Shown piece by piece: positions 2,432 through 30,240 of a stretch of 32,000 nt of DNA. The notes under the pieces are model-generated. The model was given only the letters and a program-made list of their open reading frames with translations, ran no database searches and was not told the DNA's origin. This DNA comes from Limnohabitans sp. MMS-10A-178. Its GTDB lineage: Bacteria > Pseudomonadota > Gammaproteobacteria > Burkholderiales > Burkholderiaceae_C. The stretch lies in the NCBI RefSeq assembly GCF_003063375.1, contig NZ_NERY01000004.1:137420-169419 (forward strand), read 5' to 3'. The translations under genes and the position numbers were made by a program. Within the stretch, counting starts at the first letter, position 1, and every line of letters starts with the position of its first letter.

Positions 2432-2476
2432 CGCTTCAGACTATCATCTTCGAATTCTTTCTATTCGGAGATTTTC

Positions 2477-4099: not shown

Positions 4100-4121
4100 A
4101 CATTGTTGAGCTAAACAGTCT

Positions 4122-4877: not shown

Positions 4878-4890
4878 AGGTCTCTTTCGT

Positions 4891-5991: not shown

Positions 5992-5992
5992 G

Positions 5993-7192: not shown

Positions 7193-7275
7193 GCTTGTTG
7201 CCTAAACTAAAACAGACTGACAAAAAATACGCCCCACAAAGGGGCGTATTCAATGCTTTCAAAGAGGCAGAAAAA

Positions 7276-8304: not shown

Positions 8305-8569
8305 GAATAGAATCTTTCTAAATTTATGAGTAGCCAATTGCTACACGAATGATTACATGCCAAAACATCAAAACACCCCTACTCTGGAGCATTTTTAGGC
8401 TTTTGCAATACAAGGGATTCATCTTGACGACGCAACAAAAAAGTGCAGACCGACAAGATAGGTTTTCCAGTTTGCATAATTTATGCCAACTCAAACCCAG
8501 AACTCAAATATATTCAATATGAGGACAAGGTTGGATCAGGGTGTACCCTTAAGATTATTCAATGAATTC

Positions 8570-9055: not shown

Positions 9056-9085
9056 AGTCGGTGTAGATGGGTAGGTGATTTGTGT

Positions 9086-10081: not shown

Positions 10082-10118
10082 GAAATTTGAACAGAAGTAG
10101 ATGCATTAAGTTTATTTA

Positions 10119-10145
10119 GTGCATTAAGTGCATTAAGTGCATTAA
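10119..10145. repeat. 3 tandem copies of the 9-mer GTGCATTAA (plus a degenerate copy at about 10100-10110)
   Basis: Read directly: GTGCATTAA GTGCATTAA GTGCATTAA. The last copy supplies the TAA stop (10142-10144 on the minus strand) of the dioxygenase gene. Confidence 0.9.
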
Positions 10146-11035
10146 GGAATGGGTGGCATTGGAAAATGCATTTCACCCGCCTGCAAAACAAAGTCGTACT
10201 CAAGTGAGTAGCCTACCTCGCCAGGGGCAGTGCGCTTTTTGAATTTGCCAACCAAGCTTTCCACCACGGAGAAAGTGACATCGGTGTGCAGTCGGTGATC
10301 GTCGTCTGCAAACACTTGGGTAATTAACACCTGGTAGCCTGGTTTGGAAATCATGTAGTGCACATGCGCAGGGCGATAGGGGTCGCGCCTTTGTGCGCGC
10401 AGCAAATCGCCACAGGGGCCGTCGACTGGCACGGGGTAGCCAGAGGGGCGCACCGATTTGAAACTGAACTTGCCGGTGGCATCGGTTTTGAAGCGGCCAC
10501 GCAAATTCATGTCGGGCTGCTCTTCGTCTTGGTTTTCGTAAAAGCCCAGAGGGGAGGCTTGCCACACATCCACTTCGGCGCCTTCAATAGGCTGGCCTTG
10601 TGCATCGCGCACATGGCCAGTCACTTCAAACAATTGATCGGTTTGCTTGGATTCTGGGCCGTGCGAGATGTTGCCACCCGACTCATAGACGGGTGCGTTT
10701 TTACGCCAAAAGGGTCCCAACAGCGCTGACTCGGTTTGATACTGACCTGCCTTTTCTGCGCGCTTCACATTGTTGATGAGCGTGATGAGGGTGGAGGCAC
10801 CCAAAATATCGGAAGCCAAAATGACTTCGTTCTTTTTCTCGCTGGTGTTTTTTCCAAGGCCTACCAAAAACTCACAGCCTTTTTCGAACTCAGCATCGGA
10901 AGGCTCAACCTCGCGAACAAAGGCGTGAAGGTGTTTGACAAGCGATTGCATCACCTCACGCAGACGAGGGTCGGGCGTTTTTTCAAATACCTCCAAAACC
11001 TGCGCGGTGATGTTTTCTTGAGTTACAAAGGTCAT
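10142..11035 (-). CDS. intradiol ring-cleavage dioxygenase (hydroxyquinol/catechol 1,2-dioxygenase family)
   Basis: 297 aa with an N-terminal dioxygenase_N-like helix region. The catalytic region includes GYPVPVDGP and RPAHVHYMI, typical of intradiol Fe(III) dioxygenases. Confidence 0.8.
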   Translation of the reverse strand: MTFVTQENITAQVLEVFEKTPDPRLREVMQSLVKHLHAFVREVEPSDAEFEKGCEFLVGLGKNTSEKKNEVILASDILGASTLITLINNVKRAEKAGQYQTESALLGPFWRKNAPVYESGGNISHGPESKQTDQLFEVTGHVRDAQGQPIEGAEVDVWQASPLGFYENQDEEQPDMNLRGRFKTDATGKFSFKSVRPSGYPVPVDGPCGDLLRAQRRDPYRPAHVHYMISKPGYQVLITQVFADDDHRLHTDVTFSVVESLVGKFKKRTAPGEVGYSLEYDFVLQAGEMHFPMPPIP

Positions 11036-11088
11036 CTAAAACTCCAAACGGGCGTGAGCAAAATTTTGCATTGATGATGATTATCAAG

Positions 11089-11970
11089 TTATTTGTATTT
11101 GGCTTCCAGAGCGTCAAACAATGGTTTTTGAACCAATGCTTGGCGTTCGGCAAAAGTGGCCACCACACTTGCGTCTTCTTGCAATTGGCCCTGATTTTTT
11201 AGCAGGGTGAGGGCTTGAGTCATGCCTCGAACAGCGCCTTGAAGCGCGGCGTTGGCATAGAGCACCAAGCCAAACCCCATTTCAGCCAACACGGGCTGCG
11301 CCAAAGCAGGGGTTTTGCCGCCAATGACCACATTGACAATTTGCGGACAACTCAGCTCTTTGGCAATGCGCTGCATTTCCTCGATGCTTTCAGGTGCTTC
11401 CACAAACGTCATGTCAGCACCATGTTCTGCATAGGCCGCGGCTCGATCTAGCGCTTCATTGATGCCCAACACTGCGCGTGCATCGGTGCGAGCAATGATT
11501 AAGAAATCTGAGTGCTGACGTGCATCGACAGCTGCCTTGATTTTGCCAATCATCTCCTCTGCTGAAACAACTGCTTTGCCTGCAAAGTGACCACACTTTT
11601 TGGGCATCAGTTGATCTTCAAGTTGAATTGCATTGGCACCCGAACGTTCTAAGGTGCGCACAGTTTGGCGCACATTCAGTGCGTTGCCAAAGCCTGTGTC
11701 GGCATCGACAATGATGGGCAATTCAACGGCATCTCTGGTGGCGGCAGTGTGCTGGGCTAAGTCGCTTAAGCCAATAAAGCCCAAGTCGGGAATGCCATAA
11801 AAGGTATTGGTAATGCCTGCGCCGCTGAGGTAGACGGCTTCAAATCCAACCTGTTGAATAACTCTTGCGGCCAATGCGTTGGCAGCACCGGCGACCAACA
11901 GGCCGTTTTTGGCATTCACTTTTTGCCTAAGCAAAGTGCCAGGGTGTAGGCTCTGAGATAAAGAAGTCAC
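11089..11970 (-). CDS. isocitrate lyase/PEP mutase family protein (methylisocitrate-lyase-like or oxaloacetate-decarboxylase-like)
   Basis: 293 aa. Motifs IIVDADTGFG and LEDQ..PKKCGH are characteristic of the ICL/PEPM superfamily. GTG start at 11968-11970 immediately follows the upstream stop. Confidence 0.75.
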   Translation of the reverse strand: MTSLSQSLHPGTLLRQKVNAKNGLLVAGAANALAARVIQQVGFEAVYLSGAGITNTFYGIPDLGFIGLSDLAQHTAATRDAVELPIIVDADTGFGNALNVRQTVRTLERSGANAIQLEDQLMPKKCGHFAGKAVVSAEEMIGKIKAAVDARQHSDFLIIARTDARAVLGINEALDRAAAYAEHGADMTFVEAPESIEEMQRIAKELSCPQIVNVVIGGKTPALAQPVLAEMGFGLVLYANAALQGAVRGMTQALTLLKNQGQLQEDASVVATFAERQALVQKPLFDALEAKYK

Positions 11971-12984
11971 TTAATCTTCTTTCATGCCAGCGGCGCGAAT
12001 GATGTTGCCCAACTTGGCGCGCTCTGCATTCACAAATTCATTGAAGCTGGCGCGTGTGCCACCCACGGGTTCAATGCCCATGGCTTTGAGTCGATCGGTA
12101 ATGGCGGGATTTTTCATGGCGGCATCGACGGCTGAAGCCAGCTTGTCCATGATTTCTGGTGGCACACCCACGGGTGCATGAATGCCTGCCCAATGTGCAA
12201 TCTGAATTTCAGGAAAACCCAGCTCGGCTGTGGTGGGCAGGTCGGGCGCTGCAGACATGCGCTTGGTCCAGGTGGTGGCCAAAGCCCTGAACTTGCCGCC
12301 CGCTTGTGTATGCGGCAACGACACAATACTGGCTTCAGATGTGCCCTCTACTTGCCCACTCATGACTGCAGTTGAGCCTTCAGAGCCACTCTTGTAAGGG
12401 ACTGGAATGAGCTTGGTGCCGTAATGCATGTTCATCATTTCGGACACAAAGTGCGGGGTGCTGCCAGTGCCCGCTGTGGCGAAATGTGCGCCTTGACCTT
12501 GCTTGGCAAACTCAATGAACTCTTTCAAATTATTGTGCTTAGATTTGGACGAAGTGACGATGATGGAAGGAGCCAAACCAATCATGACCACGGGCACCAA
12601 CTCATTGTCTTTGTAGGGCGCAGACTTTTTGATCATGGTGTTGGATATAACACCCGCAGCACTGATTAAAAATGTGTAGCCATCGGGCGCACTTTTAATG
12701 CCCAGCATGGTGCCCAACGTACCGCCTGCGCCTGGCCTGTTGTCAATGACCACTGGCTGGCCCAATACCTTGGAGGCGCCTTCGGCAGCTGCGCGAGCCA
12801 GCAAATCGTTGGCACCACCAGCGGCAAAAGGAACGATGAACTTGACGGTTTTGTTGGGCCAGTTGGCTGCCGCGTTGGTCGTTTGAGCCAAGCTGTTCAA
12901 GCTGAGTCCACAAACTAGGGTGAAGGCAAGGCTTGTTGCAGATTTTTGCAAGATGGATCTGCGGGCGACTTGTAAATGATTCAT
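11971..12984 (-). CDS. Bug/TctC-family tripartite tricarboxylate transporter substrate-binding protein
   Basis: AAGGAGA RBS then ATG 12984. Signal peptide MNHLQVARRSILQKSATSLAFTLVCGLSLNSLAQT, about 337 aa, Bug-like. The track ORF's N-terminal extension overlaps the next gene and is rejected. Confidence 0.8.
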   Translation of the reverse strand: MNHLQVARRSILQKSATSLAFTLVCGLSLNSLAQTTNAAANWPNKTVKFIVPFAAGGANDLLARAAAEGASKVLGQPVVIDNRPGAGGTLGTMLGIKSAPDGYTFLISAAGVISNTMIKKSAPYKDNELVPVVMIGLAPSIIVTSSKSKHNNLKEFIEFAKQGQGAHFATAGTGSTPHFVSEMMNMHYGTKLIPVPYKSGSEGSTAVMSGQVEGTSEASIVSLPHTQAGGKFRALATTWTKRMSAAPDLPTTAELGFPEIQIAHWAGIHAPVGVPPEIMDKLASAVDAAMKNPAITDRLKAMGIEPVGGTRASFNEFVNAERAKLGNIIRAAGMKED

Positions 12985-13069
12985 GCTGTCTCCTTCAATT
13001 TTTATCGTGAGTTTGAATGGCATTGTAATTTTGACCCATTCGGTGATGTCGTGTTGTGAGAATTTGGAA

Positions 13070-13936
13070 TCAGTGTGGTGCCTTAGAGCGCTCTGATCGA
13101 AGGATGAGCAAGCCCGAAATAACCAATAGAAAAATACCAGCCCAGGCAAGCGTGTTGGGCACTTCATCCCACACCACATAGCCAATGAGCAGTGCAAACA
13201 ACAAACCACTGTAGCGAAACGGTGCCACCAAACTCATTTCGCCAGAGCGCATGGCCACTATCAAAAAATAGTAGGCTACAGAAAGAAACACCGAGGCGCA
13301 GAACAGCAAAGCCAGCGAAGTGTTGTCAACGGGCACCCAGGTTTGAGTGAGTGTGATGCCGCCCGCGCCCAATGCCACTGACACGGCGGTGGACAAGCTA
13401 ATGAGAAGTGCGGGCACATGCAGGCCAATGCCCCGAGTGAGTGTGTCGCGTGTTGCATGAAGCAAAGTGGCCAGCACTGCAATCCAAGCGTACACATTGA
13501 AACCCTCAGAGCTGGGTTGAACCACCATGAGCACGCCAGTGAAGCCTAACAAAATGAGTCCGCCGCGAACAACAGTGACACGCTCTTTGAAGAAAAAGAT
13601 GGCAAACACAGTGATGAACAAAGGGGATGCCAAATTGATGGCCGTTGCATTGCCCAGTGGCAAGTGGAAAACCGCTGTGAGATAAGTGAGAGACGCTGCG
13701 GCATCGACAACACCGCGAAGCCACAACTTGGCGTTGAGCATAAGACGCCAGTTTTTGAGATGACCCATGGCTTGGGCCATGATGAGCACCAAAGTGGTGG
13801 CCATCAGGCCGCGTATGAAAATGAGCTGGTGGCCTGGTAATGTGGCGCTAACCTGCTTCACTAGCGCATCGTTGGCAATGAAAAGCGCCATGGCCAGACT
13901 CATGGCCAAAATACCGCGGCGATTGTCAGCGTCCAT
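13070..13936 (-). CDS. DMT-superfamily (EamA-like) transporter
   Basis: About 10 hydrophobic helices in two EamA-like halves. ATG at 13934-13936 (MDADNRRGILAMSLAMALF...). Confidence 0.75.
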   Translation of the reverse strand: MDADNRRGILAMSLAMALFIANDALVKQVSATLPGHQLIFIRGLMATTLVLIMAQAMGHLKNWRLMLNAKLWLRGVVDAAASLTYLTAVFHLPLGNATAINLASPLFITVFAIFFFKERVTVVRGGLILLGFTGVLMVVQPSSEGFNVYAWIAVLATLLHATRDTLTRGIGLHVPALLISLSTAVSVALGAGGITLTQTWVPVDNTSLALLFCASVFLSVAYYFLIVAMRSGEMSLVAPFRYSGLLFALLIGYVVWDEVPNTLAWAGIFLLVISGLLILRSERSKAPH

Positions 13937-13968
13937 GCAGACCTTCCTGGTGACCACGACAAGATCAT

Positions 13969-14000
13969 GAAAAAAGCCCCCTGTGCATGCACGGGGGGCT
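13969..14000 (-). terminator. intrinsic terminator downstream of the tRNA
   Basis: Minus strand: AGCCCCCCGTGCATGCACAGGGGGCT forms a hairpin with an ~11-bp stem, followed by TTTTTT. Confidence 0.75.
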
Positions 14001-14007
14001 CTAAGTT

Positions 14008-14084
14008 TGGTGGCTCTTCACGGATTCGAACCGCGGACCTGTGGATTATGATTCCATCGCTCTAACCGACTGAGCTAAAGAGCC
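14008..14084 (-). tRNA. tRNA with anticodon CAT (elongator Met, or Ile2 if C34 is lysidinylated)
   Basis: Reverse complement reads GGCTCTTTAGCTCAGTCGGTTAGAGCGATGGAATCATAATCCACAGGTCCGCGGTTCGAATCCGTGAAGAGCCACCA. It folds as a full cloverleaf with a 7-bp acceptor stem, a TTCGAAT T-loop and an encoded CCA. G1-C72 excludes an initiator tRNA. Confidence 0.93.
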
Positions 14085-14152
14085 TGAGCCAAAGATTGTA
14101 GCAAACGATTTGGTGAGATTGTTAGAACTTTTGAATAAAGTTTGGGACCTTG
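14046..14152. repeat. left copy of the 107-bp direct repeat (tRNA positions 1 to the end of the anticodon loop, plus ~68 bp upstream)
   Basis: Aligns with 25760-25866 at a constant offset of 11,714 bp. By manual alignment 101/107 are identical. Mismatches are at 14094, 14098, 14111 and 14115-14117, all outside the tRNA part. Confidence 0.9.
14095..14103 (-). promoter_or_regulatory. extended -10 promoter element (TGCTACAAT) for the intact tRNA
   Basis: The minus strand reads TGCTACAAT, ending 10 nt upstream of the mature tRNA 5' end, preceded by an AT-rich UP-like tract. No good -35 is present. Confidence 0.55.
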
Positions 14153-14186
14153 TCATTTAGATTGAAGCTCGCTTTTCTCGCGGCTA

Positions 14187-14256
14187 GGCAAAAACCGTTG
14201 TTCTAAGTTGAGTTCAGCGTGGGGATCGTGCTTGTGGGTGCGTTGAGAAAAAACGC
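14187..14256 (+). repeat. C0: diverged member of the C repeat family, contiguous with the tRNA-upstream repeat
   Basis: GGCAAAAACCGTTG..TTGAGTTCAGCG..CGTGCTTGTGGG aligns with C2 (GCGTAAAAATCGTTGAG..TTGAGTTCGGCG..CGTGCTCGTGGC). It ends in the hairpin GCGTT-N7-AACGC (14240-14256). Confidence 0.55.
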
Positions 14257-14487: not shown

Positions 14488-15009
14488 ATGAGTGATTTGA
14501 AGTTTTCTATTCGCAGAGCAGAACCTAATGATGCCGCAGGCTGCTGTGAATTGATGAGAAATGAAGATGTCTTCGCAGGATTGCTTCAGTTGCCATACCC
14601 AACAGAAACAGCTTGGCGTGAAAGGCTTTCAAGTAAATCAAATGAGGGCGACATTCTGTTGGTAGCTGTTGATAACGGTGAGGTTATTGGGCAGATAAGT
14701 TTGTTTGGAAATACACAAATGCGTAGAAGACACGCCGCAATGTTTGGACTCGCAGTGATTGGACACGCGCAGAACAAAGGTGTGGGCTCAGCATTGATGA
14801 AGGCAATGATTGACTACGCTGATAGGTGGACAACATTTCTACGCATTGAACTAACCGTCTATGCTGATAATGCGAATGCTATAGCTTTATATAAAAAGTT
14901 TGGTTTTGAGCACGAAGGCTTGCTACGCAAATATTCGCTGAGAAATGGACGCTTTGAAGATGTGGTTTCTATGGCTCGTTTCAATCCAAATCAGGCAATC
15001 GTTAGATGA
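14488..15009 (+). CDS. GNAT-family N-acetyltransferase
   Basis: AAGGA RBS 8 nt before ATG 14488. The acetyl-CoA-binding motif region QNKGVGSALMKAMIDYA and the fold pattern are typical of GNATs. Confidence 0.8.
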   Translation: MSDLKFSIRRAEPNDAAGCCELMRNEDVFAGLLQLPYPTETAWRERLSSKSNEGDILLVAVDNGEVIGQISLFGNTQMRRRHAAMFGLAVIGHAQNKGVGSALMKAMIDYADRWTTFLRIELTVYADNANAIALYKKFGFEHEGLLRKYSLRNGRFEDVVSMARFNPNQAIVR

Positions 15010-15010
15010 A

Positions 15011-15574
15011 ATGGCAAACTCTATGGAACTCATAACGCCATCTGTTGAAATTAGTGAAAGTTTTTTTGAGGCTTTGGAAAAAGGCTACGTGGATAAGTCG
15101 CGCGGAAAAATTACAACCGACAAAGACATAAACATCATCAAAAATGACTTCTCTGCTTTCGTGCGTACTTTTGATGATTTAGAAGCATCAGCAGATTTGA
15201 TTGCTTTGCCTAATGGGGACAAAGTTGAACGCTTACCAAGCATTACAAGATGGATTTGGGATGAAGGATTCTCAGGTTCAATCTCATTGCGATGGCAGAA
15301 AGGCACAACTGACTTGCCCTACTATTGTTTAGGGCACATAGGGTATGAAGTTGTGGAGTGGAAAAGAGATAAAGGGTTGGCAACTTTCGCATTGAAGTCA
15401 ATGTGTGAAACTGCTCAAAGTATGAAAATGCCGTTTGTAGAAGTCGTCACGGACATTGAAAATAAAAAGTCACAAAGAGTGATTGAGAAATCTAATGGGC
15501 GTTTGATTGAGACATTTACAAAACCAAAGCATTTGGATCAAACGCTTTCAAATCGTTATCGTATCTTTTTGTAA
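15011..15574 (+). CDS. second GNAT-like acetyltransferase (COG3981-like predicted acetyltransferase)
   Basis: ATG 15011 lies 1 nt after the upstream TGA. LRWQKGTTDLPYYCLGHIGYEVVEWKRDKGLATFAL resembles the COG3981 GNAT group (from memory). Its last ~10 codons run into repeat C1. Confidence 0.6.
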   Translation: MANSMELITPSVEISESFFEALEKGYVDKSRGKITTDKDINIIKNDFSAFVRTFDDLEASADLIALPNGDKVERLPSITRWIWDEGFSGSISLRWQKGTTDLPYYCLGHIGYEVVEWKRDKGLATFALKSMCETAQSMKMPFVEVVTDIENKKSQRVIEKSNGRLIETFTKPKHLDQTLSNRYRIFL

Positions 15575-15715
15575 AGTTTGGGGTCCTGAAGGGTGCAACC
15601 CATTTTTACCCACTGCGCACAGATTGTTGAGTCAGGTTTGGTTTCGGCGGGAGAACCGTGTTGCTAGGTTGAACTGGTTGGCAAGGGTTGTTTTACACGA
15701 CAGTTGGTGGTGTGG
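15545..15715 (+). repeat. C1: member of the C repeat family
   Basis: Contains TAAAGTTTGGGGTCC, GTTGAGTCAGGTTTG, CGG-GAGAA-CCG and the terminal hairpin GTTGT-TTTAC-ACGAC followed by AGTTGG. Confidence 0.8.
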
Positions 15716-19049: not shown

Positions 19050-19299
19050 GACATTCTGTTTTATCGGGGCTTAGCAGCTATTTTTTGGAAATTCGAAGAG
19101 TCGAGTAGCTGGATTGGCACAAAAACGCTTGTAGGGCATTTAAAGCTGTCTATCAAAACCACGCACCAAAGAAAATTAGCATTTTCTTTACCAGTGTTGA
19201 TTTCATTGAAGAATTTATGCCCTTAAATTCGGTTGTCCTTTTTCACAAAAGAAAACAAACTTGTGTACGACTTTTTATTTGTTTCGAGGAATTGAAAAA

Positions 19300-19863
19300 A
19301 TGGCACAAGCAAAAACTTTTACTAAAGAGGAATTTGAAGAGCTTCTCGACTTCGTATCAAAGCGCAGCTACGCGATGCGAAATCGAATGATGATTTTGAT
19401 CAGCTTTTGGTCTGGAATGCGAGTTGGCGAAATTGCCAGCTTGCGAATTGAGGATGTTGTAGATACATCAGGAAAAGTAAGACGCGAAATTCGATTGGAT
19501 GCTTCACAAACAAAGGGAAATCACGCTAGAACTGTTTTTTTCCCTGATAAATTGAGAGCGGAACTTCAAATCTATGTTGATGTTCGGGCAGTTAAGGATC
19601 GAAAGCAGCCATTCTTTATGACTGCTGGTGGCAAATCTTTTTCTGCGAATGTGATGACGCAGCATTTCTTTTGGCTGTATCGAAAAGCAGGCTTTGAGAC
19701 TGGAAGCCACAGCGGCAGACGTAGTTTTATTACCAATCTTGCTTCCAAAGGTATTGGCGTAAGAGTCTTGGCAAGTTTGGCGGGACACAAATCAATTAGT
19801 GTGACGCAAAAATATATTGACGTGAATGATGATATGAAACGGAACGCAATTGAAATGATCTAA
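19300..19863 (+). CDS. small (187-aa) tyrosine recombinase, catalytic domain only
   Basis: GAGGA RBS 9 nt before ATG 19300. Catalytic signature residues are present: R in GMRVGE, H-x-x-R in SHSGRRSF, H in LAGHKS, Y in TQKYID. There is no room for an N-terminal core-binding domain. Confidence 0.8.
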   Translation: MAQAKTFTKEEFEELLDFVSKRSYAMRNRMMILISFWSGMRVGEIASLRIEDVVDTSGKVRREIRLDASQTKGNHARTVFFPDKLRAELQIYVDVRAVKDRKQPFFMTAGGKSFSANVMTQHFFWLYRKAGFETGSHSGRRSFITNLASKGIGVRVLASLAGHKSISVTQKYIDVNDDMKRNAIEMI

Positions 19864-19875
19864 CAATTGCTTTAA

Positions 19876-20934
19876 TTAAGCATCTCGAATAATGACAATT
19901 CTTTCCCGCGGTTGGATGATTAAATTGTTTTGCCTTGTTCTCTCGGGCTCGTCGTAGTAGATACCTTTTACACCTGCTAATTTATTCACACTTAGCTCTG
20001 AAATTAGGTTCAGGTTCCACCAACTACTCTCAAGCTCTTTGTGCTGATCTAGTTGTCTTTGTGTAAATCGTTGTCCATTTAAGGCAACTTCTTCGTAGCT
20101 TGGGAAGATGCCTCTTTCGGCATTGGCAGTAAGTAGTCCCGCTTTTTGAATATTTCGGCTGACGGCTACTCTCATTCGGTTGTGCCTTGCTCTAACTTCA
20201 TCTGGTGAACCACTCATCGATTCGTTTTTGGGGCTTACTTTGAGTAATTTTCCAATTCGATAGAGATCCGCTTTCGACGTTTCTCTCAAAGCCTCAGGTT
20301 TATTTTGCTTAAGCCACTTTGGCTTTTCAATAAGTTCTCGATGAAGGGCGTATACCTCGTGAACCTTTTGGAGAATCGGTGTTCCAAATTGAACAGGTTG
20401 GATTTTGAACTCAGCAGTAGTCAGTTCAATTCGCCTATTTAATCTAATACTTTCGTATTCTTTTAATAGTTTTCCAATATTTTTTTGAATAGTCCGAGTG
20501 CTTAGTTTCAATGGTATTTCAACCCAAATCTTGTCCTCTGCGGGTAATTGTCTTTCTCGATCAGAAGGACGTCTGGGCACTTCTTTTACTTTTGGGAATT
20601 TTTCTTCTTCGCTAAAGATTCTGTAACCACGTTCTACCCACCATTCATCAAAGTTGGTTTTGTATACATCACCGAACCGTCTGTAAACCCTGCGAAGCTT
20701 CTCATCTTGAGTAGCTATGTTGTGACCTTGTGTTGTTTGACAAACCAGCCAGTAAGCCTTGCTGAGACGAAGGCATTCCCACCACCAGCGTCGAACACTA
20801 TTTCTCACATCTACGAGTGACTCCTCCGGTTTTTTGTACCGAAGTTTTCGAAGTCCTTTTAGAACGTGCTCTTGGTTATCAGGTGGTGAAAAATCTTCAT
20901 TCATTATTAGTCTGCCATATGCGCGAAACAACAT
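19876..20934 (-). CDS. hypothetical 352-aa basic protein
   Basis: Long ORF with island-like composition. The N-terminal RRWWWECLRLSKAYW faintly recalls the W-x-W-E-F-L-R-R motif of regulator-like domains on integrative elements (from memory, weak). The start is ATG 20934 or 20904. Confidence 0.6.
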   Translation of the reverse strand: MLFRAYGRLIMNEDFSPPDNQEHVLKGLRKLRYKKPEESLVDVRNSVRRWWWECLRLSKAYWLVCQTTQGHNIATQDEKLRRVYRRFGDVYKTNFDEWWVERGYRIFSEEEKFPKVKEVPRRPSDRERQLPAEDKIWVEIPLKLSTRTIQKNIGKLLKEYESIRLNRRIELTTAEFKIQPVQFGTPILQKVHEVYALHRELIEKPKWLKQNKPEALRETSKADLYRIGKLLKVSPKNESMSGSPDEVRARHNRMRVAVSRNIQKAGLLTANAERGIFPSYEEVALNGQRFTQRQLDQHKELESSWWNLNLISELSVNKLAGVKGIYYDEPERTRQNNLIIQPRERIVIIRDA

Positions 20935-21070: not shown

Positions 21071-22081
21071 ATGACAGCAGTTATTGAGAAAACTACATCT
21101 TCTGTAAACACTACAGCTACTTTCAGTACAACTTTGCCAAATGGTCAAAAAATGACTATCAATAGTGGAGTTGAAGAATTGGAGTTTGTAAGCAATCAAT
21201 TTAAAGATTTGCCGATTGAAGAGCGATTGGTTGCCGCCGAAAAAGTTCGGGATGAAATGATAGAAAACACAGACAACGAAGATAAGGAGCAATTGGATAA
21301 AGAAATCAGCGAAATGACATCTTCGTACGAGCAGCCAAAGGAACAGTATTCGGTTCCTGCGAAATTGGAATACACGATTGACGAAGATGAGGAAGAAGAA
21401 AAGATAGAGCCTAAGACGCGTCAAGCATATGTCTGGTATTTCAAAGCGCATCAGCGTCGTACAGCAATCGCTTCTTTACAAATGTGTCGCGTTGTCTACG
21501 AAGCTAGTAAGTCATTAGCAGATCTAAACTTCGACGAGTTTTGTAAAAACATTGGTTACGAACCAAAAAGCAGCACTATCCGGAAATTCACAGTTGTAGG
21601 AAAGGTGTACCCACGATTGATCAAATATGCTGATCAATTGCCAGCAGCGTGGACAAGCATCTACGCTTTGACACAAATGCCAGCCGATGAATTTGAACGT
21701 TGTATTGAAAGTGGGTACCGTTTGTGTGATCTTTCTGGTGGCGAAATTGATCAGTTAGTTAAGAAAACTCGACAGATCAATAACTTGATGTCGCCATTCA
21801 AGTTAGATAAGAAGCAAAACGCCATTTGCGTAGCAAAAGTTTATTTCACACGCACGATGGATGACGTTGATCTGCGATTGCTTCAGAAAGCATTTGATGA
21901 AGTTGCCGCTAGATTGCCAGTCAAGCTGAGTATTGAAACGCAAGTTCTCGAAATGTTCAAAGAGCGTGCCAATCAGCGTTATCAAAAGCTAAAGCAAGAA
22001 GCTCCTGAAACAGGTATCAAACCTGAAGCTTGGGACTATGGTGTTGCTGCTAATTCTGTCTATAACAAAGACGCAGCATAA
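21071..22081 (+). CDS. hypothetical 336-aa protein with an acidic N-terminal half
   Basis: AAGGA RBS 8 nt before ATG 21071. The acidic low-complexity N-terminus is followed by a C-terminal region (FCKNIGYEPKSSTIRKFTVVGKVYPRL...LPAAWTSIYALTQMP) that resembles phage/plasmid helix-rich DNA-binding proteins (weak). Confidence 0.6.
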   Translation: MTAVIEKTTSSVNTTATFSTTLPNGQKMTINSGVEELEFVSNQFKDLPIEERLVAAEKVRDEMIENTDNEDKEQLDKEISEMTSSYEQPKEQYSVPAKLEYTIDEDEEEEKIEPKTRQAYVWYFKAHQRRTAIASLQMCRVVYEASKSLADLNFDEFCKNIGYEPKSSTIRKFTVVGKVYPRLIKYADQLPAAWTSIYALTQMPADEFERCIESGYRLCDLSGGEIDQLVKKTRQINNLMSPFKLDKKQNAICVAKVYFTRTMDDVDLRLLQKAFDEVAARLPVKLSIETQVLEMFKERANQRYQKLKQEAPETGIKPEAWDYGVAANSVYNKDAA

Positions 22082-23378: not shown

Positions 23379-24185
23379 TCATTTCATTTGATCCCTATTA
23401 ATTTCTTGATTTTTTTTCTTAATGGCTCTGTCAGATGCTTCTATACTTTCCGACGCCTTGGTCCAGGACGCTCTCACAGCAGCGTTAATGACAAAGCCCA
23501 TACAGTAACGATTTACATCAGAGTCTTTTGGGATAAATACTCCCTTAAGAACACTACTGATGAAACGCTCTTGAGATGGTTCGCAAGTCACTCTCGATAC
23601 ACTTGGTCCTTCGAACTGAAACGCCCAAATCGTTCCGGCAACATCATAGAAATCCATTGCCGTGGATAAACTTTTTGAAAACTCCGGCATTTCATCTGAA
23701 CTTTCGCGAAGGTAAGATTGAACTTCAAATTTAGGATCAGAAATTACACCAGAATAGTCTCTATATGAAACACCTGTCCCCACTCGCGTTTGAACTCGTC
23801 TCACTACTTGCAATATCTTTTGTGCTTTTTCAATCTTTTTTCTTTCACTTGCTATCCGCTTCTCTTCCGCTGCAATCTTTTCTGCTTCTATTTTTGCTAA
23901 TGCCTCTTTTTCTTTTCTTTCACTTGCTAGCTTCTTCTCTTCTGCTGCAATCTTTTCTGCTTCTATTCTTGCTACTTCCTCTTTTTGTTTTCTATCATTC
24001 TCTTCCTGCATCATCTTTTTAGTTTGTCTATCAAAACAATCTGCTTTTTTAGCAGCATTTTTTATTGCTTGGCACTCTTGCAAACCTGTCAATGATGAAG
24101 CATAAGTTGAACTTACTACAGACAACAAAAGCAATCCAATCAATGCACCTTTGATCGCTACTTTTTCCACAGGATTTCCTTTCAT
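23379..24185 (-). CDS. secreted coiled-coil protein with an internal 25-aa tandem duplication
   Basis: Signal peptide MKGNPVEKVAIKGALIGLLLLSVVSSTYA from ATG 24185. Repeats ARIEAEKIAAEEKKLASERK / AKIEAEKIAAEEKRIASERK. The C-terminal ~130 aa are non-repetitive. Confidence 0.65.
   Translation of the reverse strand: MKGNPVEKVAIKGALIGLLLLSVVSSTYASSLTGLQECQAIKNAAKKADCFDRQTKKMMQEENDRKQKEEVARIEAEKIAAEEKKLASERKEKEALAKIEAEKIAAEEKRIASERKKIEKAQKILQVVRRVQTRVGTGVSYRDYSGVISDPKFEVQSYLRESSDEMPEFSKSLSTAMDFYDVAGTIWAFQFEGPSVSRVTCEPSQERFISSVLKGVFIPKDSDVNRYCMGFVINAAVRASWTKASESIEASDRAIKKKNQEINRDQMK
23840..23975. repeat. 75-bp in-frame tandem duplication inside the coiled-coil gene
   Basis: CTTTCACTTGCTA recurs at 23843 and 23918 with near-identical following sequence. 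Confidence 0.8.
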
Positions 24186-24228
24186 TTTTTCGCAATCATA
24201 CACATCTCGAAAATAGAATCAACAAACA

Positions 24229-25584
24229 TCAAGCCAACTTATCAGCAGCCATCGTTGCCGTCAATTTAGAGTAATGCCGCTCCAACATAGTCACAGAAGT
24301 TCCCATTTGCCGCGCAAGTGTGTGAATGTCAGTGCCAGCTAATAGTTCCTGTGTAGCATAGGTATGGCGTAAGCTGTAAAGCGTTCTGTCTGTGCCTGCC
24401 TGTCCCTTTACCAAGTCCAAGTCTTCCAACAAGCGCCTAAATATCTTGTTCATTTCAAAAGGTTTGCGTCCATCTTTGAACCTGAACAATTTGACTGGCA
24501 TTCTCAGCGCCAGCAAATCGTCAAAATTCAAGTCAGCGGTGTCAGTGTGAGTTGCCTTTAGTCGCTCAAGCACAGGCAGGCATTCGTGTTTGGCAATAAG
24601 CCACCTTGCGCCTGTTTTACCAGACACCCATATGCGTAAGTAGCGCACATCCTTTTCTACATACCACTCAATGTGCCGCCACTCCAAGTTCATTGACTCA
24701 GTGCCTTGTCGCATTCCTGTCAAACACAAAATATCCACCAAGTCTCGCAGCATCAGCCGCATCTCGCCTGTGTAGCCTTCCACGCCCACATACCAATTCT
24801 TCAGGAGCTGTTGAATTCGTGCTACTTCGTCGTTGGTGAAAGCAGGGCGAGCTTTTCCTTTCTCACCACGCACATTGAGTTTTGGCACTGGCACCTTATC
24901 GCTGATCCATCCTTGCTCCACTGCGGTTTTAGTGATGCGTGTGAATGCTGTAGAAAAAGTGAGTAGGGTAGAGACTTTGGGAGGACGTCTCAGTTGTGAA
25001 TTTCTCCACACCTCAAATTCAGCGATGTGCTTGTTGGTGATGCTGGTCAAATACATCTGCCCAAAGAACGGTATCAAATAAGTTTCAATCACAGCGATGT
25101 ATGCGGTGTAGATTTTCTTGCCTGTGCCTGCTGCGATGTCTCGCCTCATCTCAGCGACACAGCACTTTGCCATTTCATCAAATCGTTTTACCAGTGGGGT
25201 AAATCCCAAACGCTCTCTGTATCGTGCTTCGTCATATCTGTCGCAGGCAATCTGCTTGGCGTCATCGAGATTTCTGCGTCTGGTGCTAAAGCGTATCCAC
25301 TTGCCTGTGTAGATGCGAAACCTTGCTTGCCAGTAGTTGCTGCGAGCTACTTTGAACAGGACAACTTCGCTGTCTCGCAAGTGGACGAGCCTACCTTCAG
25401 CAGCAGCCAATTCGTCGATGGAATCACGCTCGAGCAGCGTTTCTACACGCTTGTGCTGCTTGACTATGCTCTCAGTTTTAACAGCGTACTTAACGCTGTT
25501 TGATGCGTTTAACAGCACAGTCGTGCTGTGGGCGCCGTAGTAATTTTTAAATGAAAAAATCTCAAGTGCGTCACGCTGTTTCAT
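24229..25584 (-). CDS. int: tyrosine-type site-specific integrase of the island
   Basis: 451 aa. C-terminal catalytic region LCLTGMRQGT...YSLRHTYATQELLAGTDIHTLARQMGTSVTMLERHYSKL. It sits 176 bp from the truncated tRNA repeat. Confidence 0.88.
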   Translation of the reverse strand: MKQRDALEIFSFKNYYGAHSTTVLLNASNSVKYAVKTESIVKQHKRVETLLERDSIDELAAAEGRLVHLRDSEVVLFKVARSNYWQARFRIYTGKWIRFSTRRRNLDDAKQIACDRYDEARYRERLGFTPLVKRFDEMAKCCVAEMRRDIAAGTGKKIYTAYIAVIETYLIPFFGQMYLTSITNKHIAEFEVWRNSQLRRPPKVSTLLTFSTAFTRITKTAVEQGWISDKVPVPKLNVRGEKGKARPAFTNDEVARIQQLLKNWYVGVEGYTGEMRLMLRDLVDILCLTGMRQGTESMNLEWRHIEWYVEKDVRYLRIWVSGKTGARWLIAKHECLPVLERLKATHTDTADLNFDDLLALRMPVKLFRFKDGRKPFEMNKIFRRLLEDLDLVKGQAGTDRTLYSLRHTYATQELLAGTDIHTLARQMGTSVTMLERHYSKLTATMAADKLA

Positions 25585-25717: not shown

Positions 25718-25760
25718 GTTATGTGAACTTAACGGTATTGGCACCGTCGTCACTGTTTTT

Positions 25761-25798
25761 TATGATTCCATCGCTCTAACCGACTGAGCTAAAGAGCC
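25761..25798 (-). pseudogene. truncated tRNA(CAT): 5' half only (position 1 to the anticodon loop)
   Basis: 38 nt identical to 14047-14084. The sequence left of 25760 has no similarity to the tRNA 3' half. Confidence 0.9.
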
Positions 25799-25808
25799 TG
25801 AGCCAAAA

Positions 25809-25817
25809 ATTATAGCA
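25809..25817 (-). promoter_or_regulatory. extended -10 element TGCTATAAT in front of the truncated tRNA
   Basis: Consensus TGnTATAAT on the minus strand, at the position homologous to 14095-14103. Confidence 0.55.
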
Positions 25818-25920
25818 AACGATTGGGTTCAATTGTTAGAACTTTTGAATAAAGTTTGGGACCTTGGATAGATGTAGCTAAGTTAGCGAGCTAATGTCAG
25901 CCTAGGGTATAACTTTACAA

Positions 25921-27504
25921 ATGATGACTCATTCAATGAAAAACTTAAGGCTGGCGATGTTGTTTTCGCTTGCATATGTATGCGTTGACTGGCTTAGTTT
26001 CATTCATCCAATGGGGCAACTCAACATAACACCTTGGAACCCGCCTGCCGCTGTTCAAGTACTTTTCTTAACTTGGGCGGGATTGCTGTGGGCACCGTGG
26101 GTGTTTATCACAATCGGATTTGCTGATTGGTTAATCCGCGATTCAGTTATCTTTTCTTCATCTGTTTTGATTGGAAATGCGATCTTGATCGGATGCTACG
26201 CAATTATTTCGTATGTATTGATCAAGCTAATGAAAGGTGTTCCAAGACTTCAAAACCGAGTTGAAGTTTTTAAGCTAAGTTTGGTTAGCGTGATTGGTGC
26301 GGCGATAACTGCAATCTTATATGTAGGTTTGCAAACTCTAATTGGCAAATTGGGAAAAGATGATTTCTTAGAGGCAAGTTATCGTTTTTTTGTAGGAGAT
26401 TTATTGGGACTGATAGTTGTACTGCCGTTGGCGCTATTGTTTATAAACCCGTTCAGGCGCGAACAATTCAAACAAATGTTTTTAAGTTATTCGTTTTGGC
26501 TGTTGTTCTTGGGACTTCTAATTTGTGAGTACCTAGTCTTTTCATTGCCAATTGAAATGCAAATGAAGTACTTTTTTCCATTGTTCTTTGTGGTCGGTTT
26601 AATTGGTGCGGCTCACTCTTTGCCTGGTTCTACTTTTGCTGCCGCAGTCGTGCAAGTCCCTTTAGTGATCAGTTTTACGCAAGTGGGTGTGCTGCCCAGT
26701 GATTTGATTGATATGCAAATTGTGATGTTCACGCTGTCAATGACGGGTTTGCTCATTGGAACTGTTGTTGACGAACGATTAAACACGCAAGAAAAGTTGA
26801 AGGAAACTTTGCAACTGGTGGCTGCAGGCGAATTAGCTGGCTCTCTCGCTCACGAATTGCATCAGCCTATGAGTGCGATCAATACCTATGCGGAATCGGC
26901 TTTGCTACTGTCCTCAATTGAGAGCAAAGAAGTCAATCAAAAAAATAAAGACCGATTACGTCAAACACTAGATCAAATCATAAAGGAATCAATTCGTGCA
27001 TCCGAGATTGTCCGAGGATTGAGAAGTTTCTTCATAGGTGGCACATCAAATATCAAAGAAGCGGAAGTTGAGCGGTTGGTGATAGATACAGTTTCGCAGT
27101 TAGAAAATTATGCGCAAAAATTAAGTGTGCAGATCAAGGTTGAAAAGCTCAATGAACCAGTTTCGGTGATGGTTGACATTACTCAAGTGAAAACAGCATT
27201 AGGTAACTTGATCAAAAATGCTATAGAGTCTGCCAACTCAAATGGTGTCGTTGAAGTTATGTTTACATTAGATAAACAACAACGCATTGAAATTAGCATT
27301 TTTGATACTGGTAAAACTCTTGATACTTATGAAAGCGAAATTATTTTTAAGCCCTTCTATAGTGATAAGAAAGACGGCTTAGGTTTGGGTTTGTCCATTA
27401 GTAAATCATTGATTGAAAACAATGATGGATCAATTACATACAGATCAAATCCCAGAAAATGTTTTGTTGTTTCATTACCTACAGGAAACAAAATAGATGT
27501 CTGA
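25921..27504 (+). CDS. sensor histidine kinase with a MASE1-like membrane N-terminal domain
   Basis: About 280 aa of multi-pass membrane domain (IHPMGQLNITPWNPPAAVQV, MASE1-like). H-box LAHELHQPMSAINTYAE, N-box NLIKNAIES, G-box DGLGLGLSISK. Confidence 0.8.
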   Translation: MMTHSMKNLRLAMLFSLAYVCVDWLSFIHPMGQLNITPWNPPAAVQVLFLTWAGLLWAPWVFITIGFADWLIRDSVIFSSSVLIGNAILIGCYAIISYVLIKLMKGVPRLQNRVEVFKLSLVSVIGAAITAILYVGLQTLIGKLGKDDFLEASYRFFVGDLLGLIVVLPLALLFINPFRREQFKQMFLSYSFWLLFLGLLICEYLVFSLPIEMQMKYFFPLFFVVGLIGAAHSLPGSTFAAAVVQVPLVISFTQVGVLPSDLIDMQIVMFTLSMTGLLIGTVVDERLNTQEKLKETLQLVAAGELAGSLAHELHQPMSAINTYAESALLLSSIESKEVNQKNKDRLRQTLDQIIKESIRASEIVRGLRSFFIGGTSNIKEAEVERLVIDTVSQLENYAQKLSVQIKVEKLNEPVSVMVDITQVKTALGNLIKNAIESANSNGVVEVMFTLDKQQRIEISIFDTGKTLDTYESEIIFKPFYSDKKDGLGLGLSISKSLIENNDGSITYRSNPRKCFVVSLPTGNKIDV

Positions 27505-28084
27505 AAACAAACTGATTTGTATTGTTGATGATGATGCATCTGTGCGTGATTCACTGAGCTTGGTGCTTGGATTGAAAGGCTACGACTGCAGGACTTATGA
27601 AAGTGCAGAGTCTTTCCTTTCTAGTTTGCCCAATCGTCCCGCTTGTATCATTTTGGATTTGAAGATGACTGGGATGAGTGGACTTGAATTGCAAAACCGC
27701 TTGCTAAGTCAAAAAGTGCCAGTGCAAATCATTTTTTTAACTGCGTTTGCAGATGTACAAGTGATGCGCGAAGCATTTTTAGGCAATGCAGTGGACTTCT
27801 TAGAAAAGCCATTTGTACTTGAACAGCTTCTGGAATCTATCAATCGCTCATTACACAACTTATCAGCAACTACCGAAACAATTCAACATAATCAAAAATT
27901 GAGTTTGCTGACACCTCGGGAAAAAGAAGTCTTTGATGTTCTTGCCCTAGGAAAAAGCCACCGAGAGATAGGGGAGTTGTTAAAAATTAGCCCAAGAACT
28001 GTTGAGGTTCATAAGGGTAGAGTACTGGAGAAACTTGGTATCAAGACATTAGCTGACATCTTGCGAATTGCCATCAAAACTTGA
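27497..28084 (+). CDS. FixJ/LuxR-family response regulator
   Basis: Receiver domain (IVDDDASVRDSL...ILDLKMTGMSG) plus a LuxR HTH (LTPREKEVFDVLALGKSHREIGELLKISPRTVEVHKGRVLEKLG). It overlaps the kinase gene by 8 nt. Confidence 0.88.
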   Translation: MSENKLICIVDDDASVRDSLSLVLGLKGYDCRTYESAESFLSSLPNRPACIILDLKMTGMSGLELQNRLLSQKVPVQIIFLTAFADVQVMREAFLGNAVDFLEKPFVLEQLLESINRSLHNLSATTETIQHNQKLSLLTPREKEVFDVLALGKSHREIGELLKISPRTVEVHKGRVLEKLGIKTLADILRIAIKT

Positions 28085-28468: not shown

Positions 28469-28663
28469 ATGTTTCAAGTAGTCGTTCAGTCCGCTATGCG
28501 CCTACTGAAATCAAAAAAATTTCGCTTACCTCCACCGCCCACTGATGCTTCAGAAACAGATAAAAAATATGAATCTAAAGACAAAACAGGGCTCATCTTG
28601 ATTCTTATGATTGGTGGCGGAGTATTTTTGATGGCTATGTTCTCAAATCTACCAAGTAACTAA
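28469..28663 (+). CDS. possible 64-aa protein with a C-terminal membrane helix
   Basis: ORF only. Its 3' end overlaps sequence that looks like a decayed tRNA 5' half leading into repeat C2, so it may be fortuitous. Confidence 0.3.
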   Translation: MFQVVVQSAMRLLKSKKFRLPPPPTDASETDKKYESKDKTGLILILMIGGGVFLMAMFSNLPSN

Positions 28664-28822
28664 ATTTTTTTAAGGTTGTATTCTTTTGTTTGGGGTCTAG
28701 GAGGATGCCCACCTATTTTTACCCCCTGCGTAAAAATCGTTGAGTCAGGTTTGAGTTCGGCGGTTCTACCGTGCTCGTGGCTTGGTGTGGAGATCAGGTG
28801 TCGTTTTACACGACAGTTGGTT
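28640..28822 (+). repeat. C2: member of the C repeat family
   Basis: GTTTGGGGTC...GCGTAAAAATCGTTGAGTCAGGTTTGAGTTCGGCGGTTCTACCGTGCT...GTGGAGATCAGGTGTCGTTTTACACGACAGTTGG. The core spans 28688-28822. Confidence 0.85.
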
Positions 28823-28887
28823 TTGGGGTTCGCTTGATACGTCAGGAAAAAGTCAGAAAATAACTTAAAACCTTTTTAAAGGTGTAT

Positions 28888-29202
28888 TTACTTTTTTTGT
28901 TTTCCCAAAAATATAGTGGCGCCGTTTAAGCCTGCGAAAACTTGAAAATGTAAATTAGCAGGGAGTAGGAACTCCTCCTCCAGTTGGAATCTGTAGGTAC
29001 CTGATGCTGTTTGAATTTCTAGATTCCCTGTTAGAACCATTCCTAGAATAATTCGATCTGTGTGCTGTAAGCAAGTGCTTTGAAACGGCTTAAGCGTTCT
29101 CAAATTACCTCTATGAAATCCTCGTTCAATCAAACTTGAACTGTAGTCTGAGATCAGTTTGCTTAAATTGGTTTTTTGTGCAGTCACATCAGCCTCCAGC
29201 AA
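28888..29202 (-). CDS. hypothetical ~100-aa protein, possibly a cupin-like beta-barrel
   Basis: ORF with a TTG start. The beta-strand-rich C-terminus (ILGMVLTGNLEIQTASGTYRFQLEEEFLLPANLHFQVFAG) is cupin-like by eye only. Confidence 0.4.
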   Translation of the reverse strand: MLEADVTAQKTNLSKLISDYSSSLIERGFHRGNLRTLKPFQSTCLQHTDRIILGMVLTGNLEIQTASGTYRFQLEEEFLLPANLHFQVFAGLNGATIFLGKQKK

Positions 29203-29321
29203 GCAGATAAATTTTCTTAGTTCAATTTAGAATTTCGAATAACCATACCTTTTCTTTGCTTTTTAAAATCTAAATATGTCATTTGAATGAACAGAAAATT
29301 AAATTTTTGAATAACACCCAA

Positions 29322-29530
29322 AACTGATCCACCCAAATCGCAGATCCAAGTTGAGTTTTTGAGCAATGATTAGATTCTCAGTACTTTTAAATAAAGGTTG
29401 AAGTCTTTAAGGATGAGCTTCAAAAGGACAAACGTAAAAATCGTTGAGTCAGGTTTAGTTTCTGCGGGTCTACCGTGCTACTGGGTGGAGTGGAGATCAG
29501 GTGTCGTTTTACACGACAGCGGGTGTGTGG
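29322..29530 (+). repeat. C3: member of the C repeat family, including a decayed tRNA-5'-half/promoter-like leader
   Basis: GTACTTTTAAATAAAGGTTGAAGTC aligns with GAACTTTTGAATAAAGTTTGGGACC of the tRNA-upstream repeat. Then follows CGTAAAAATCGTTGAGTCAGGTTTAG...GTGGAGATCAGGTGTCGTTTTACACGACAG. Confidence 0.85.
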
Positions 29531-29616
29531 GTGAACCTAGCAATTGTTCATTGTTGACATCTTCATTTCCAGTGTGGCAATAATAAATGTATGCACACAC
29601 ACGAGGAGATATCGAT

Positions 29617-30240
29617 ATGCAAATTGTTGAATTAATACTATCAAAGGCTCAAACACTCAAAGTTGGTGAAGTGTCATTGATTGATGGCAAGAAGTCCATG
29701 TGTATCAATGTTGATGGTTATTTCGGTGGTGGACAAGGCCCAGTTTGGGCCACTGAAGGCACAAAGATAGTTTTCACCACACTCAACCACTGCTCATTGG
29801 TGGAAGGCATATGTACCAAGGTCTATCCAGATTGCCTCAATGTGACCATAGAACTCACAAAAGCTAACACTTGGGGGAAATATGTCACTGGCACGAAAGT
29901 TCGACTGCACATATCATCCATTCACAGATATCACCTAGCTACAAGTGACACAGAACTATTACTGGAATCTTCAAGAAAACATGCAGCTGAAGTCTTCAAC
30001 AAGAAGGCTTTTCAAAACATCTCACTCAAAGAGATTCATGAAGCCATTGAATCCGAGCATCATCTAAAGGTGAGAGATCGGATTGGCAAAGTAAATTATC
30101 AGTACTTACAGGATGTCATCGGCTTGTACCTACGCATTTCTAAAAAAGTGGGTGCAAAAGATGTTGGCGGTAATCGATCACAGATAGATCAACTTATCAG
30201 TAGATTGCATGATCGAATCAAGGAATTCAAAGCCGATTGA
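29617..30240 (+). CDS. hypothetical 207-aa protein
   Basis: GAGGAG RBS 8 nt before ATG 29617 (the track start 29587 is less likely). No domain recognised. Confidence 0.65.
   Translation: MQIVELILSKAQTLKVGEVSLIDGKKSMCINVDGYFGGGQGPVWATEGTKIVFTTLNHCSLVEGICTKVYPDCLNVTIELTKANTWGKYVTGTKVRLHISSIHRYHLATSDTELLLESSRKHAAEVFNKKAFQNISLKEIHEAIESEHHLKVRDRIGKVNYQYLQDVIGLYLRISKKVGAKDVGGNRSQIDQLISRLHDRIKEFKAD

Follow-up and report, generated by a model that had tools for sequence, protein, structure and literature searches.

The window analysed here, a stretch of 32,000 nt of Limnohabitans sp. MMS-10A-178 (contig NZ_NERY01000004.1), passes at a tRNA-Met gene from core genome into an island, and within this island lie copies of an intergenic repeat of ~110 nt, here called C, several of them accompanied by a 19-nt leader motif, L. 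Positions 1-14000 belong to the core genome of a Comamonadaceae-like betaproteobacterium (GC ~0.50-0.58), with several TctC/Bug-type receptors, ABC transporters and a tmRNA gene at 1-295, and the DNA to the right of the tRNA-Met gene is low in GC throughout (~0.38-0.45). We report that the three copies first noticed in this island, C1, C2 and C3, belong to a large family of DNA repeats, hitherto undescribed, by which cassette boundaries are marked, and we somewhat favour the view that L and C together form the junction module of an additive cassette array anchored at tRNA-Met.

Results

The island and its repeats

The anchor of the island is a tRNA-Met(CAT) gene on the minus strand (14008..14084; ARAGORN and Rfam), and an intact, identical tRNA stands beside C/L arrays in three public loci (L060, L110 and L072). 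A 114-nt direct repeat (14039-14152 and 25753-25866, 92% identical) encloses an integrative element of 11.7 kb (~14.15-25.75 kb). The repeated part contains a partial tRNA: the complement of tRNA positions 1-39 is joined to the 68 nt upstream of the tRNA, with L at the end. This arrangement can be followed on the plus strand both as att repeat copy 1 (14046..14152; repeat search and BLAST) and as att repeat copy 2 (25760..25866), where a displaced 39-nt tRNA 5' half (25760-25798) is joined to a copy of the tRNA-upstream region with L at 25841-25859. The att region of this intact element thus takes in the tRNA half, the upstream region, L and a truncated C copy, C0. We also observe that what the element duplicates is the 5' half of tRNA-Met (positions 1-39, to the anticodon loop) with its upstream promoter region, and not the usual 3' part, so that the element must provide the tRNA with a functional promoter and 5' half.

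All copies of L and C in the window lie on the plus strand. The first L motif, ACTTTTGAATAAAGTTTGG (14127..14145), has the dyad AACTT-TTGAATA-AAGTT and is a candidate crossover core, as judged from a motif scan, a logo of 218 distinct copies and the sharpness of the breakpoints at L. C0 was found just beyond the tRNA-upstream repeat by running the family profile with filters off (nhmmer --max); it is a divergent C-left half (14184..14239, profile positions 10-66; E 9e-4), the score of which is reached by 4 of 2000 shuffles. C1 has a complete core (15606..15712; nhmmer 85.7 bits), preceded by a degenerate L module, ATCTTTTTGTAAAGTTTGGGGTCCTGAAGGGTG (15563..15595), that overlaps the stop of the open reading frame (ORF) 14945-15574. 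The C2 core, also complete and a mosaic junction (28719..28825; 104.8 bits), follows a remnant of the right half of an L module, GTTTGGGGTCTAGGAGGATG (28688..28707), and it is precisely here that homology to one of the public contigs (L125) stops. Before the C3 core (29430..29528; 93.2 bits), a motif scan finds an L motif with three mismatches, ACTTTTAAATAAAGGTTGA (29383..29401), and, between this and C3, a degenerate copy of a palindrome that we call H, TGAGCTTCAAAAGGACA (29414..29430).

C1, C2 and C3 are same-orientation repeats (nhmmer E 1e-26 to 1e-32) with a mean column identity of 80% in their alignment, and score 86-105 bits against the family profile; the words GTTGAGTCAGGTTT and GTTTTACACGACAG occur three times each in the window, always on the plus strand, where shuffling leads one to expect 0.02-0.03. 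The identical runs that the original prediction had quoted for the three copies are found at the positions it gave. The terminal hairpin that it described, TGTCGT-TTTAC-ACGACA, is present in C2 (28799-28815) and C3 (29502-29518), but in C1 (15686-15702) a G-T pair and a G/A mismatch weaken it. Its placing of the copies at module boundaries is borne out by comparison with other contigs, and it was correct in remarking that they fit no annotated feature type. The core 14 kb of the window has no C or L copy, as judged by profile and motif scan.

Distribution of the repeat family and its link to tRNA-Met

GTDB species representatives, scanned with a two-block pattern (45-65-nt gap), yielded two real homologues, one in a Comamonadaceae and one in a Burkholderiales metagenome-assembled genome (MAG), both from lakes, and one chance match. 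JGI/ENA metagenomes, scanned with a three-block pattern, yielded at least 120 contigs, mostly freshwater by their record names. Among the loci from the pattern scans as a whole, L003 and L129 were rejected as chance matches within genes. The counts of C and L given from here on refer to a locus set of ~600 kb, made up of the metagenome contigs listed and the two MAGs. It holds at least 317 C copies (profile HMM), many of the C matches falling at contig ends, and at least ~260 copies of L (fuzzy search), as against nine tRNA 5' halves. Scans of IMG/VR for C and L returned no real copy, a single chance match inside a GC-rich coding region being all that was found, and a phage origin was rejected on these grounds. 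In the literature searched, we found no earlier description of this repeat family.

Only one tRNA type, tRNA-Met, occurs in any locus listed, always on the strand opposite to L and C, and in L060 and L072 the order is tRNA, upstream region, L and complete C. Whether copies might be scattered genome-wide, as the original prediction had asked, was put to the public loci, where the tRNA-Met context is the only one seen and where, in 110 of 111 loci, all C and L copies point the same way. The 68 nt upstream of the tRNA are present there in many partial copies, all of which keep the final ~23-53 nt, that is, L and the part preceding it.

The leaders of the window copies had been aligned by the original prediction with this upstream repeat. 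Judged by shuffle statistics, the homology is real for C3 and C1 (0 of 2000 shuffles each) and does not stand for C2 alone (855 of 2000). A decayed tRNA 5' half, which had been claimed to lie to the left of C3, finds no support, since 1664 of 2000 shuffles reach its score; as shown by L098, L125 and L111, the sequence there matches not the tRNA but the segment 16-40 nt upstream of it (TTGAGCAAACGATT / TTGTAGCAAACGATT). No tRNA-derived sequence was detected in the junction repeats C2 and C3, and only the tRNA-upstream motif L is shared.

Anatomy of the unit

A full unit runs from the L module (ttAGATTcTcAGA-ACTTTTGAATAAAGTTTGG-GGTCTAGAAGGATG) through H or a linker, 'CCCATTTTTACCCC', to the C core of ~110 nt, 3' of which there is a G/T-rich tail, often with a second H. 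The dyad of L may also be read as 6-bp arms around 5 nt, and its most variable positions are central; this layout would be that of a tyrosine-recombinase core site. L is found 25-30 nt upstream of 60% of complete C cores, and C follows 67% of L copies. H, a 17-nt palindrome with the consensus TGTCCTTTWAAAGGACA, frequently flanks the C core directly, upstream in 48 and downstream in 47 of 201 complete copies. Its arms, TGTCC..GGACA, resemble those of the C hairpin, TGTCG..CGACA, with a symmetric C/G swap, which suggests a common dimeric binding protein or a common hairpin.

Within the C core, near-invariant blocks (ATCGTTGAGTCAGGTTTG, TTTC.GCGG, ACCGTGCT and GTGTCGT.T.ACACGACAG; ATCGTTGAGTCAGGTTT is also named among the blocks) are separated by short variable ones that exist as discrete alleles. 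The core also splits into two halves: ~17 copies end and ~14 begin near profile position 65, with many different flanks in each group, and C0 is one of the left halves. In a sub-family of C (L084 8422-8484, L100, L109, L062 and L097), block 1 reads GTTCTGTCAGG in place of GTTGAGTCAGG; copies of this type are mostly left halves, ending near profile position 65 and giving way to unrelated DNA.

RNA, coding and regulatory readings of C

The conservation of C is one of sequence, without covariation. In the window, Rfam at gathering thresholds finds tmRNA and tRNA alone, and a search of 28500-29700 by E-value (E up to 10) returns only SNORD115, at E 8.3. Folds of single copies, on both strands, are no better than those of shuffles (z -1.3 to +1.2). 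RNAalifold, applied to 95 distinct C copies, gives -3.6 kcal/mol with a covariation term of -0.03 and no compensatory pairs; the minus-strand consensus fold (-6.6 kcal/mol) comprises the hairpin and one short helix only, and a terminal hairpin of 4-6 bp is all that the consensus fold finds. This hairpin is 93-99% paired because it is invariant, also in 88 copies not picked by the search pattern, and mutations there mostly break pairs. The compensatory central stem of the original prediction did not survive: among the 95 distinct copies 66% of cells are paired, two of the six pairs are mostly unpaired, there are no double-sided changes, and the covariation score of the GAG/CGG...CCG/CTC helix falls inside the shuffle range. 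Nor did the check for covariation find any across the distinct copies as a whole; mutual information in C is dominated by adjacent columns, which points to linked alleles and not to Watson-Crick partners.

An ORF traverses some C copies; a coding function was rejected on the strength of 1-nt indels in ~5% of copies, an alternative 5' linker that adds a stop, and the lack of 3-nt periodicity. A role as untranslated region, promoter or terminator was likewise set aside, given that the orientation of flanking genes is random, that inspection of L and C reveals no spaced sigma-70-like hexamers, and that no U-tract follows the hairpin or H. By eye, we saw no convincing likeness to LexA, IHF or dif sites. 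Finally, C was rejected as an attC site, there being no palindromic architecture, no co-orientation of genes and no IntI, and the complement of GTTGAGT does not occur inside the unit.

Cassettes and breakpoints

L/C units are spaced at a median of 1033 nt, and the junctions are always intergenic and always in one orientation, opposite to the tRNA. The genes on either side follow no such rule: the four combinations of flanking-gene orientation are near equal (38, 31, 30 and 28), and within arrays 192 ORFs run in the same orientation as the repeat and 172 in the opposite one. The DNA between units is highly varied, with 303 clusters among its 598 ORFs. The commonest cargo comprises GNAT acetyltransferases, alpha/beta hydrolases, nucleotide cyclases, and GFA and beta-lactamase-fold proteins, and none of the 25 Pfam families found most often in 150 cassette protein clusters is that of a recombinase or integrase.

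Among 3828 pairs of copies, 38 share one flank alone. An alpha/beta-hydrolase cassette is seen in at least six contexts (L060, L002, L047, L010, L058, L012 and L084), being the first past the tRNA in L060 and the last in L002, ahead of GC-0.56 DNA with a TctC gene. The cassette to the left of C2, which encodes a histidine kinase (HK), a response regulator (RR) and a protein of 64 aa, is present in 22 public contigs; in the four examined (L125-L128), its right neighbours are unlike those in the window, and homology reaches only as far as 28683 or 28707, where the L module ends. The 64-aa ORF (28469-28663, plus strand) always co-travels with the MASE1 histidine kinase and the GerE-type response regulator (25921-28084), the three forming one cassette. 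To the right of C3, the cassette is 99% identical in L032, where the left flank is unrelated.

Breakpoints anchored on L are sharp. Of 53 distinct events with near-identical left flanks, 47 lose identity 0-18 nt past L; of 17 with near-identical right flanks, 10 do so 0-10 nt before L and a further 4 at 27 nt before it, these last being cases of a longer tRNA-upstream form. Breakpoints anchored in C are scattered (core coordinates -3, 15, 16, 29, 37, 43, 54, 62, 78 and 85), with a preference for the edges of invariant blocks; diverged direct repeats that undergo homologous exchange or gene conversion give such a pattern. An 'insertion into C', with cargo between a C-left and a C-right half, was also considered and rejected as a general rule: a right partial comes after a left one only once, as against 16-25 times for each other transition that involves a partial copy.

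At distal ends of arrays, a C-left half abuts the same flank, ttaatgaaatcacgtag, in L002, L010 and L089, and in L002 this leads to the GC-0.56 DNA. In L126-L128, the C copy that follows the HK-RR cassette is cut at ~position 40, near DNA of GC 0.59-0.63. In L126 (2660-2720), it is fused, via the common word TTCAGCG, to a sequence found after a C-right half in L036 (134-260). The fusion in L126-L128 has the appearance of a microhomology deletion at the distal island border, beside a TctC gene of GC 0.6.

The integrative element and other features of the window

The 11.7-kb element encodes two enzymes of relevance to the model set out below. The larger is an integrase of 451 aa (24229..25584, minus strand), recognised by weak Pfam integrase and SAM-like matches below cut-offs, a homologue of which, 92% identical, lies in L074 beside the same 39-nt partial tRNA-Met; the identical partial tRNA also occurs in L119, L068 and L098. 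The smaller is a tyrosine recombinase of 200 aa with a catalytic domain only (19261..19863, plus strand; Pfam Phage_integrase 1.9e-27), Xer/invertase-like, for which the best NCBIfam models are Xer, integron-integrase and Fim-type invertase, all far under cut-off (integrase_gron, for example, gives 48.5 bits where 265 is required). Homologues of 43-59% identity are found in L093, L039, L011 and L065, and in both loci checked (L065 and L011) a large integrase gene adjoins them.

The element also encodes an HTH protein and DUF6641/DUF6626 proteins, and for two of its backbone ORFs (19876-20934 and 21071-22081) neither Pfam nor NCBIfam gives a match. Inside a Lys/Glu-rich ORF of the element (23379-24203, minus strand), there is a 75-nt tandem duplication (23838-23987, 89% identical). 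On the core side, a G+C-rich inverted repeat, gccccctgtgcatgcacggggggc (13975-14003), between an EamA-family gene and the 3' end of the tRNA is probably a terminator common to these two convergent genes. The tmRNA gene (minus strand, 100.7 bits) is truncated by the window start, and its neighbouring DNA is core-like in GC; tmRNA genes, too, are frequent targets of islands. An exact-protein look-up returned no record for the last ORF of the window and, for one core protein, a sole match in an 8-kb Logan contig.

Discussion

Drawing these observations together, we propose that freshwater Comamonadaceae-like bacteria have an additive cassette array anchored at tRNA-Met and that L and C form its junction module, a reading to which we would give a probability of about 0.55. 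Incoming DNA, such as the 11.7-kb element, would bring a tRNA-upstream/L/C segment to the island, and cassettes would then be joined and exchanged through site-specific recombination at the 19-bp dyad of L, the breakpoint pattern making L a probable site of crossover. We suggest that a tyrosine recombinase borne on resident elements might act in trans, the 451-aa integrase and the 200-aa Xer-like enzyme being the candidates, and that C, placed 25-30 nt to one side of L, would serve in the manner of an att arm, with invariant blocks and a hairpin that may be protein-binding or bending sites. As a long direct repeat, C would also undergo homologous exchange and gene conversion, and so its copies would stay similar while cassettes are shuffled or deleted. 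The anticodon loop is the classical place of crossover for tRNA integrases, and since the tRNA-half repeat ends there, the large integrase may cross over at that point and another enzyme at L. The original prediction, which saw att arms bounding stacked islands at a tRNA, was right in outline, these being junctions of a tRNA-Met-anchored stack; its notion of a decayed relic is wrong, because more than 300 copies retain invariant blocks in the core, a conservation well beyond that of neutral relics, and because most copies are without tRNA-derived sequence and the tRNA half that had been claimed is not significant.

A number of points weigh against this proposal. Sequence comparison gave no direct view of recombination in action, the loci searched include no circular cassette contigs, and a search for empty sites produced only self matches and adjacent-repeat artefacts, with no clean empty site. 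No recombinase consistently adjoins the arrays, integrases being present in ~5 of the ~120 loci listed, the contigs of which are short. The end of the att repeat in the anticodon loop points to a crossover of the large integrase there and not at L, and the breakpoints at L could also stem from rare homologous exchange within 19-45 nt of identity. Further, 40% of complete C copies are without L and one third of L copies without C, which means that either module can occur on its own; the sole apparently intact element has a degenerate C0, which is odd for an essential arm; and the model does not account for the half copies that recur with a break near profile position 65.

A more specific variant, which we hold only tentatively, is that of a non-integron cassette system, in which single-gene cassettes would leave the array as circles and be inserted beside tRNA-Met by a trans-acting tyrosine recombinase that recognises L, with C as an accessory site and analogue of attC; the small Xer-like enzyme would be the most speculative candidate for this recombinase. 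Integron arrays, for instance those with Vibrio VCRs, are alike in their ~1-kb, mostly single-gene cassettes, in their ~100-150-nt repeats of one orientation that are similar within a lineage, in their GNAT-rich cargo and in the presence of the same cassette in different contexts. The integron core GTTRRRY is fitted by GTTGAGT, but this lies at the 5' side of C, and some breakpoints fall in that block and others elsewhere. Integrons differ in that the repeat described here has no imperfect palindrome and no inverse core, the genes are not co-oriented, IntI, attI and Pc are lacking, and the anchor is a tRNA gene. The pdif modules of Acinetobacter plasmids (Xer-dependent dif), and other elements that enter dif sites by Xer recombination, are alike as small modules with short dyad sites for tyrosine recombinases and exchange of context, and a Xer-like enzyme is present in the island; dif itself, however, is a site of 28 bp for XerC/D, with two 11-bp arms and a 6-bp centre, whereas L has arms of 5-6 bp and a centre of 5-7 nt and is without likeness to dif by eye, and the sites here are all direct and not alternating, with no counterpart of C in that system.

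Slightly less probable again, and in our view doubtful, is the idea that each L/C is a passive relic, i.e. the leftover att arm of a former full element whose backbone has been deleted, with gene conversion keeping the copies alike, no mobility of cassettes and no function for C. Elements are well known to accrete in tandem at tRNAs, with repeats of part of the tRNA, and serial integration is known from the additive islands of Alteromonas, where it takes place at tRNA genes with att-derived direct repeats (PMC4898812), from the tRNA-Lys island of 'Ca. Methylopumilus' (Methylophilaceae; PMC10872708) and from the tycheposon arrays of Prochlorococcus (preprint 10.1101/2020.12.28.424599). The window itself has one intact element with tRNA half, L and C0, and both the scattered breakpoints inside C and microhomology deletion products such as the L126 truncation would be expected of passive decay. 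Against this, neutral decay would not always spare the L and C blocks (~260 and 317 copies) and yet lose the 39-nt tRNA part (9 copies), the cassettes, at ~1 kb, are far below the size of any integrase-bearing element, invariant blocks alternate with discrete variable ones, and the breakpoints at L are sharp.

Our preferred reading, of an additive array with L and C at its junctions, shares with these additive islands and tycheposons a hotspot at the side of a tRNA, serial cassettes, att-derived direct repeats, elements with tyrosine integrases and a variable cargo of low GC. It departs from them in that the repeat is a 19-nt tRNA-upstream motif with an unrelated 110-nt module and not a piece of tRNA, that the tRNA 5' half and promoter are replaced and not the 3' end, and that the cassettes are mostly single genes without integrases. 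The anchor here, tRNA-Met, is likewise a known target of integration.

We consider it improbable that C, with H palindromes as its ends, is a selfish miniature element of the REP/BIME/MITE type with its transposase elsewhere. The many copies, their combinatorial modules, the H palindromes that flank about a quarter of cores, the relatedness of H to the C hairpin, and the many copies at contig ends, as assembly-breaking repeats would be, are all in keeping with this; but in the loci searched we found neither terminal inverted repeats specific to C nor target duplications or empty sites, the GTDB species representatives gave just two real matches and one chance match to the two-block pattern, and the single orientation in 110 of 111 loci, together with confinement to this island type (none in the core 14 kb of the window, tRNA-Met being the only context seen), argues against free transposition. 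Neisserial mosaic elements (RS repeats and dRS3) are combinatorial intergenic modules of 50-150 bp with palindromic borders of ~20 bp, and are tied to recombination and the integration of mobile DNA; they differ in sequence and taxa from the repeat described here, which has a strict orientation and a single tRNA. Least probable of all, by a narrow step, is a small non-coding or cis-regulatory RNA carried on island cassettes, an option raised by the original prediction along with the miniature element, for although C is ~110 nt long, intergenic and strongly conserved, with a conserved 6-7-bp hairpin at its 3' end in which one copy has an A-T replacement, it has neither Rfam match nor compensatory pairs, folds like shuffles, draws its mutual information from adjacent columns, lacks a conserved promoter upstream in copies without L and a U-tract past the hairpin, and is oriented with the array and not with the randomly oriented genes.

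Cassette arrays are known mainly from integrons, and tRNA-linked additive islands are usually described as hotspots with repeats of tRNA fragments. Here, a tRNA-Met hotspot of abundant lake bacteria is organised by a specific, conserved two-part junction that recurs hundreds of times in freshwater metagenomes, breaks assemblies, and marks the exact points at which ~1-kb cassettes (GNATs, hydrolases, cyclases and two-component systems) are swapped between strains. Should L and C be a mere anchor for homologous recombination, they would still be useful as a guide to how such islands are built and as a caution in binning and assembly. If a recombinase does act on L, the motif would provide a testable handle on how the flexible genome of freshwater bacterioplankton is assembled, profiles of L and C could be used to delimit such arrays in MAGs, and there would be a candidate for a new pair of recombinase and site. 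And if the non-integron cassette system were to prove true, freshwater Comamonadaceae would own a second, independently evolved platform for the capture of cassettes.

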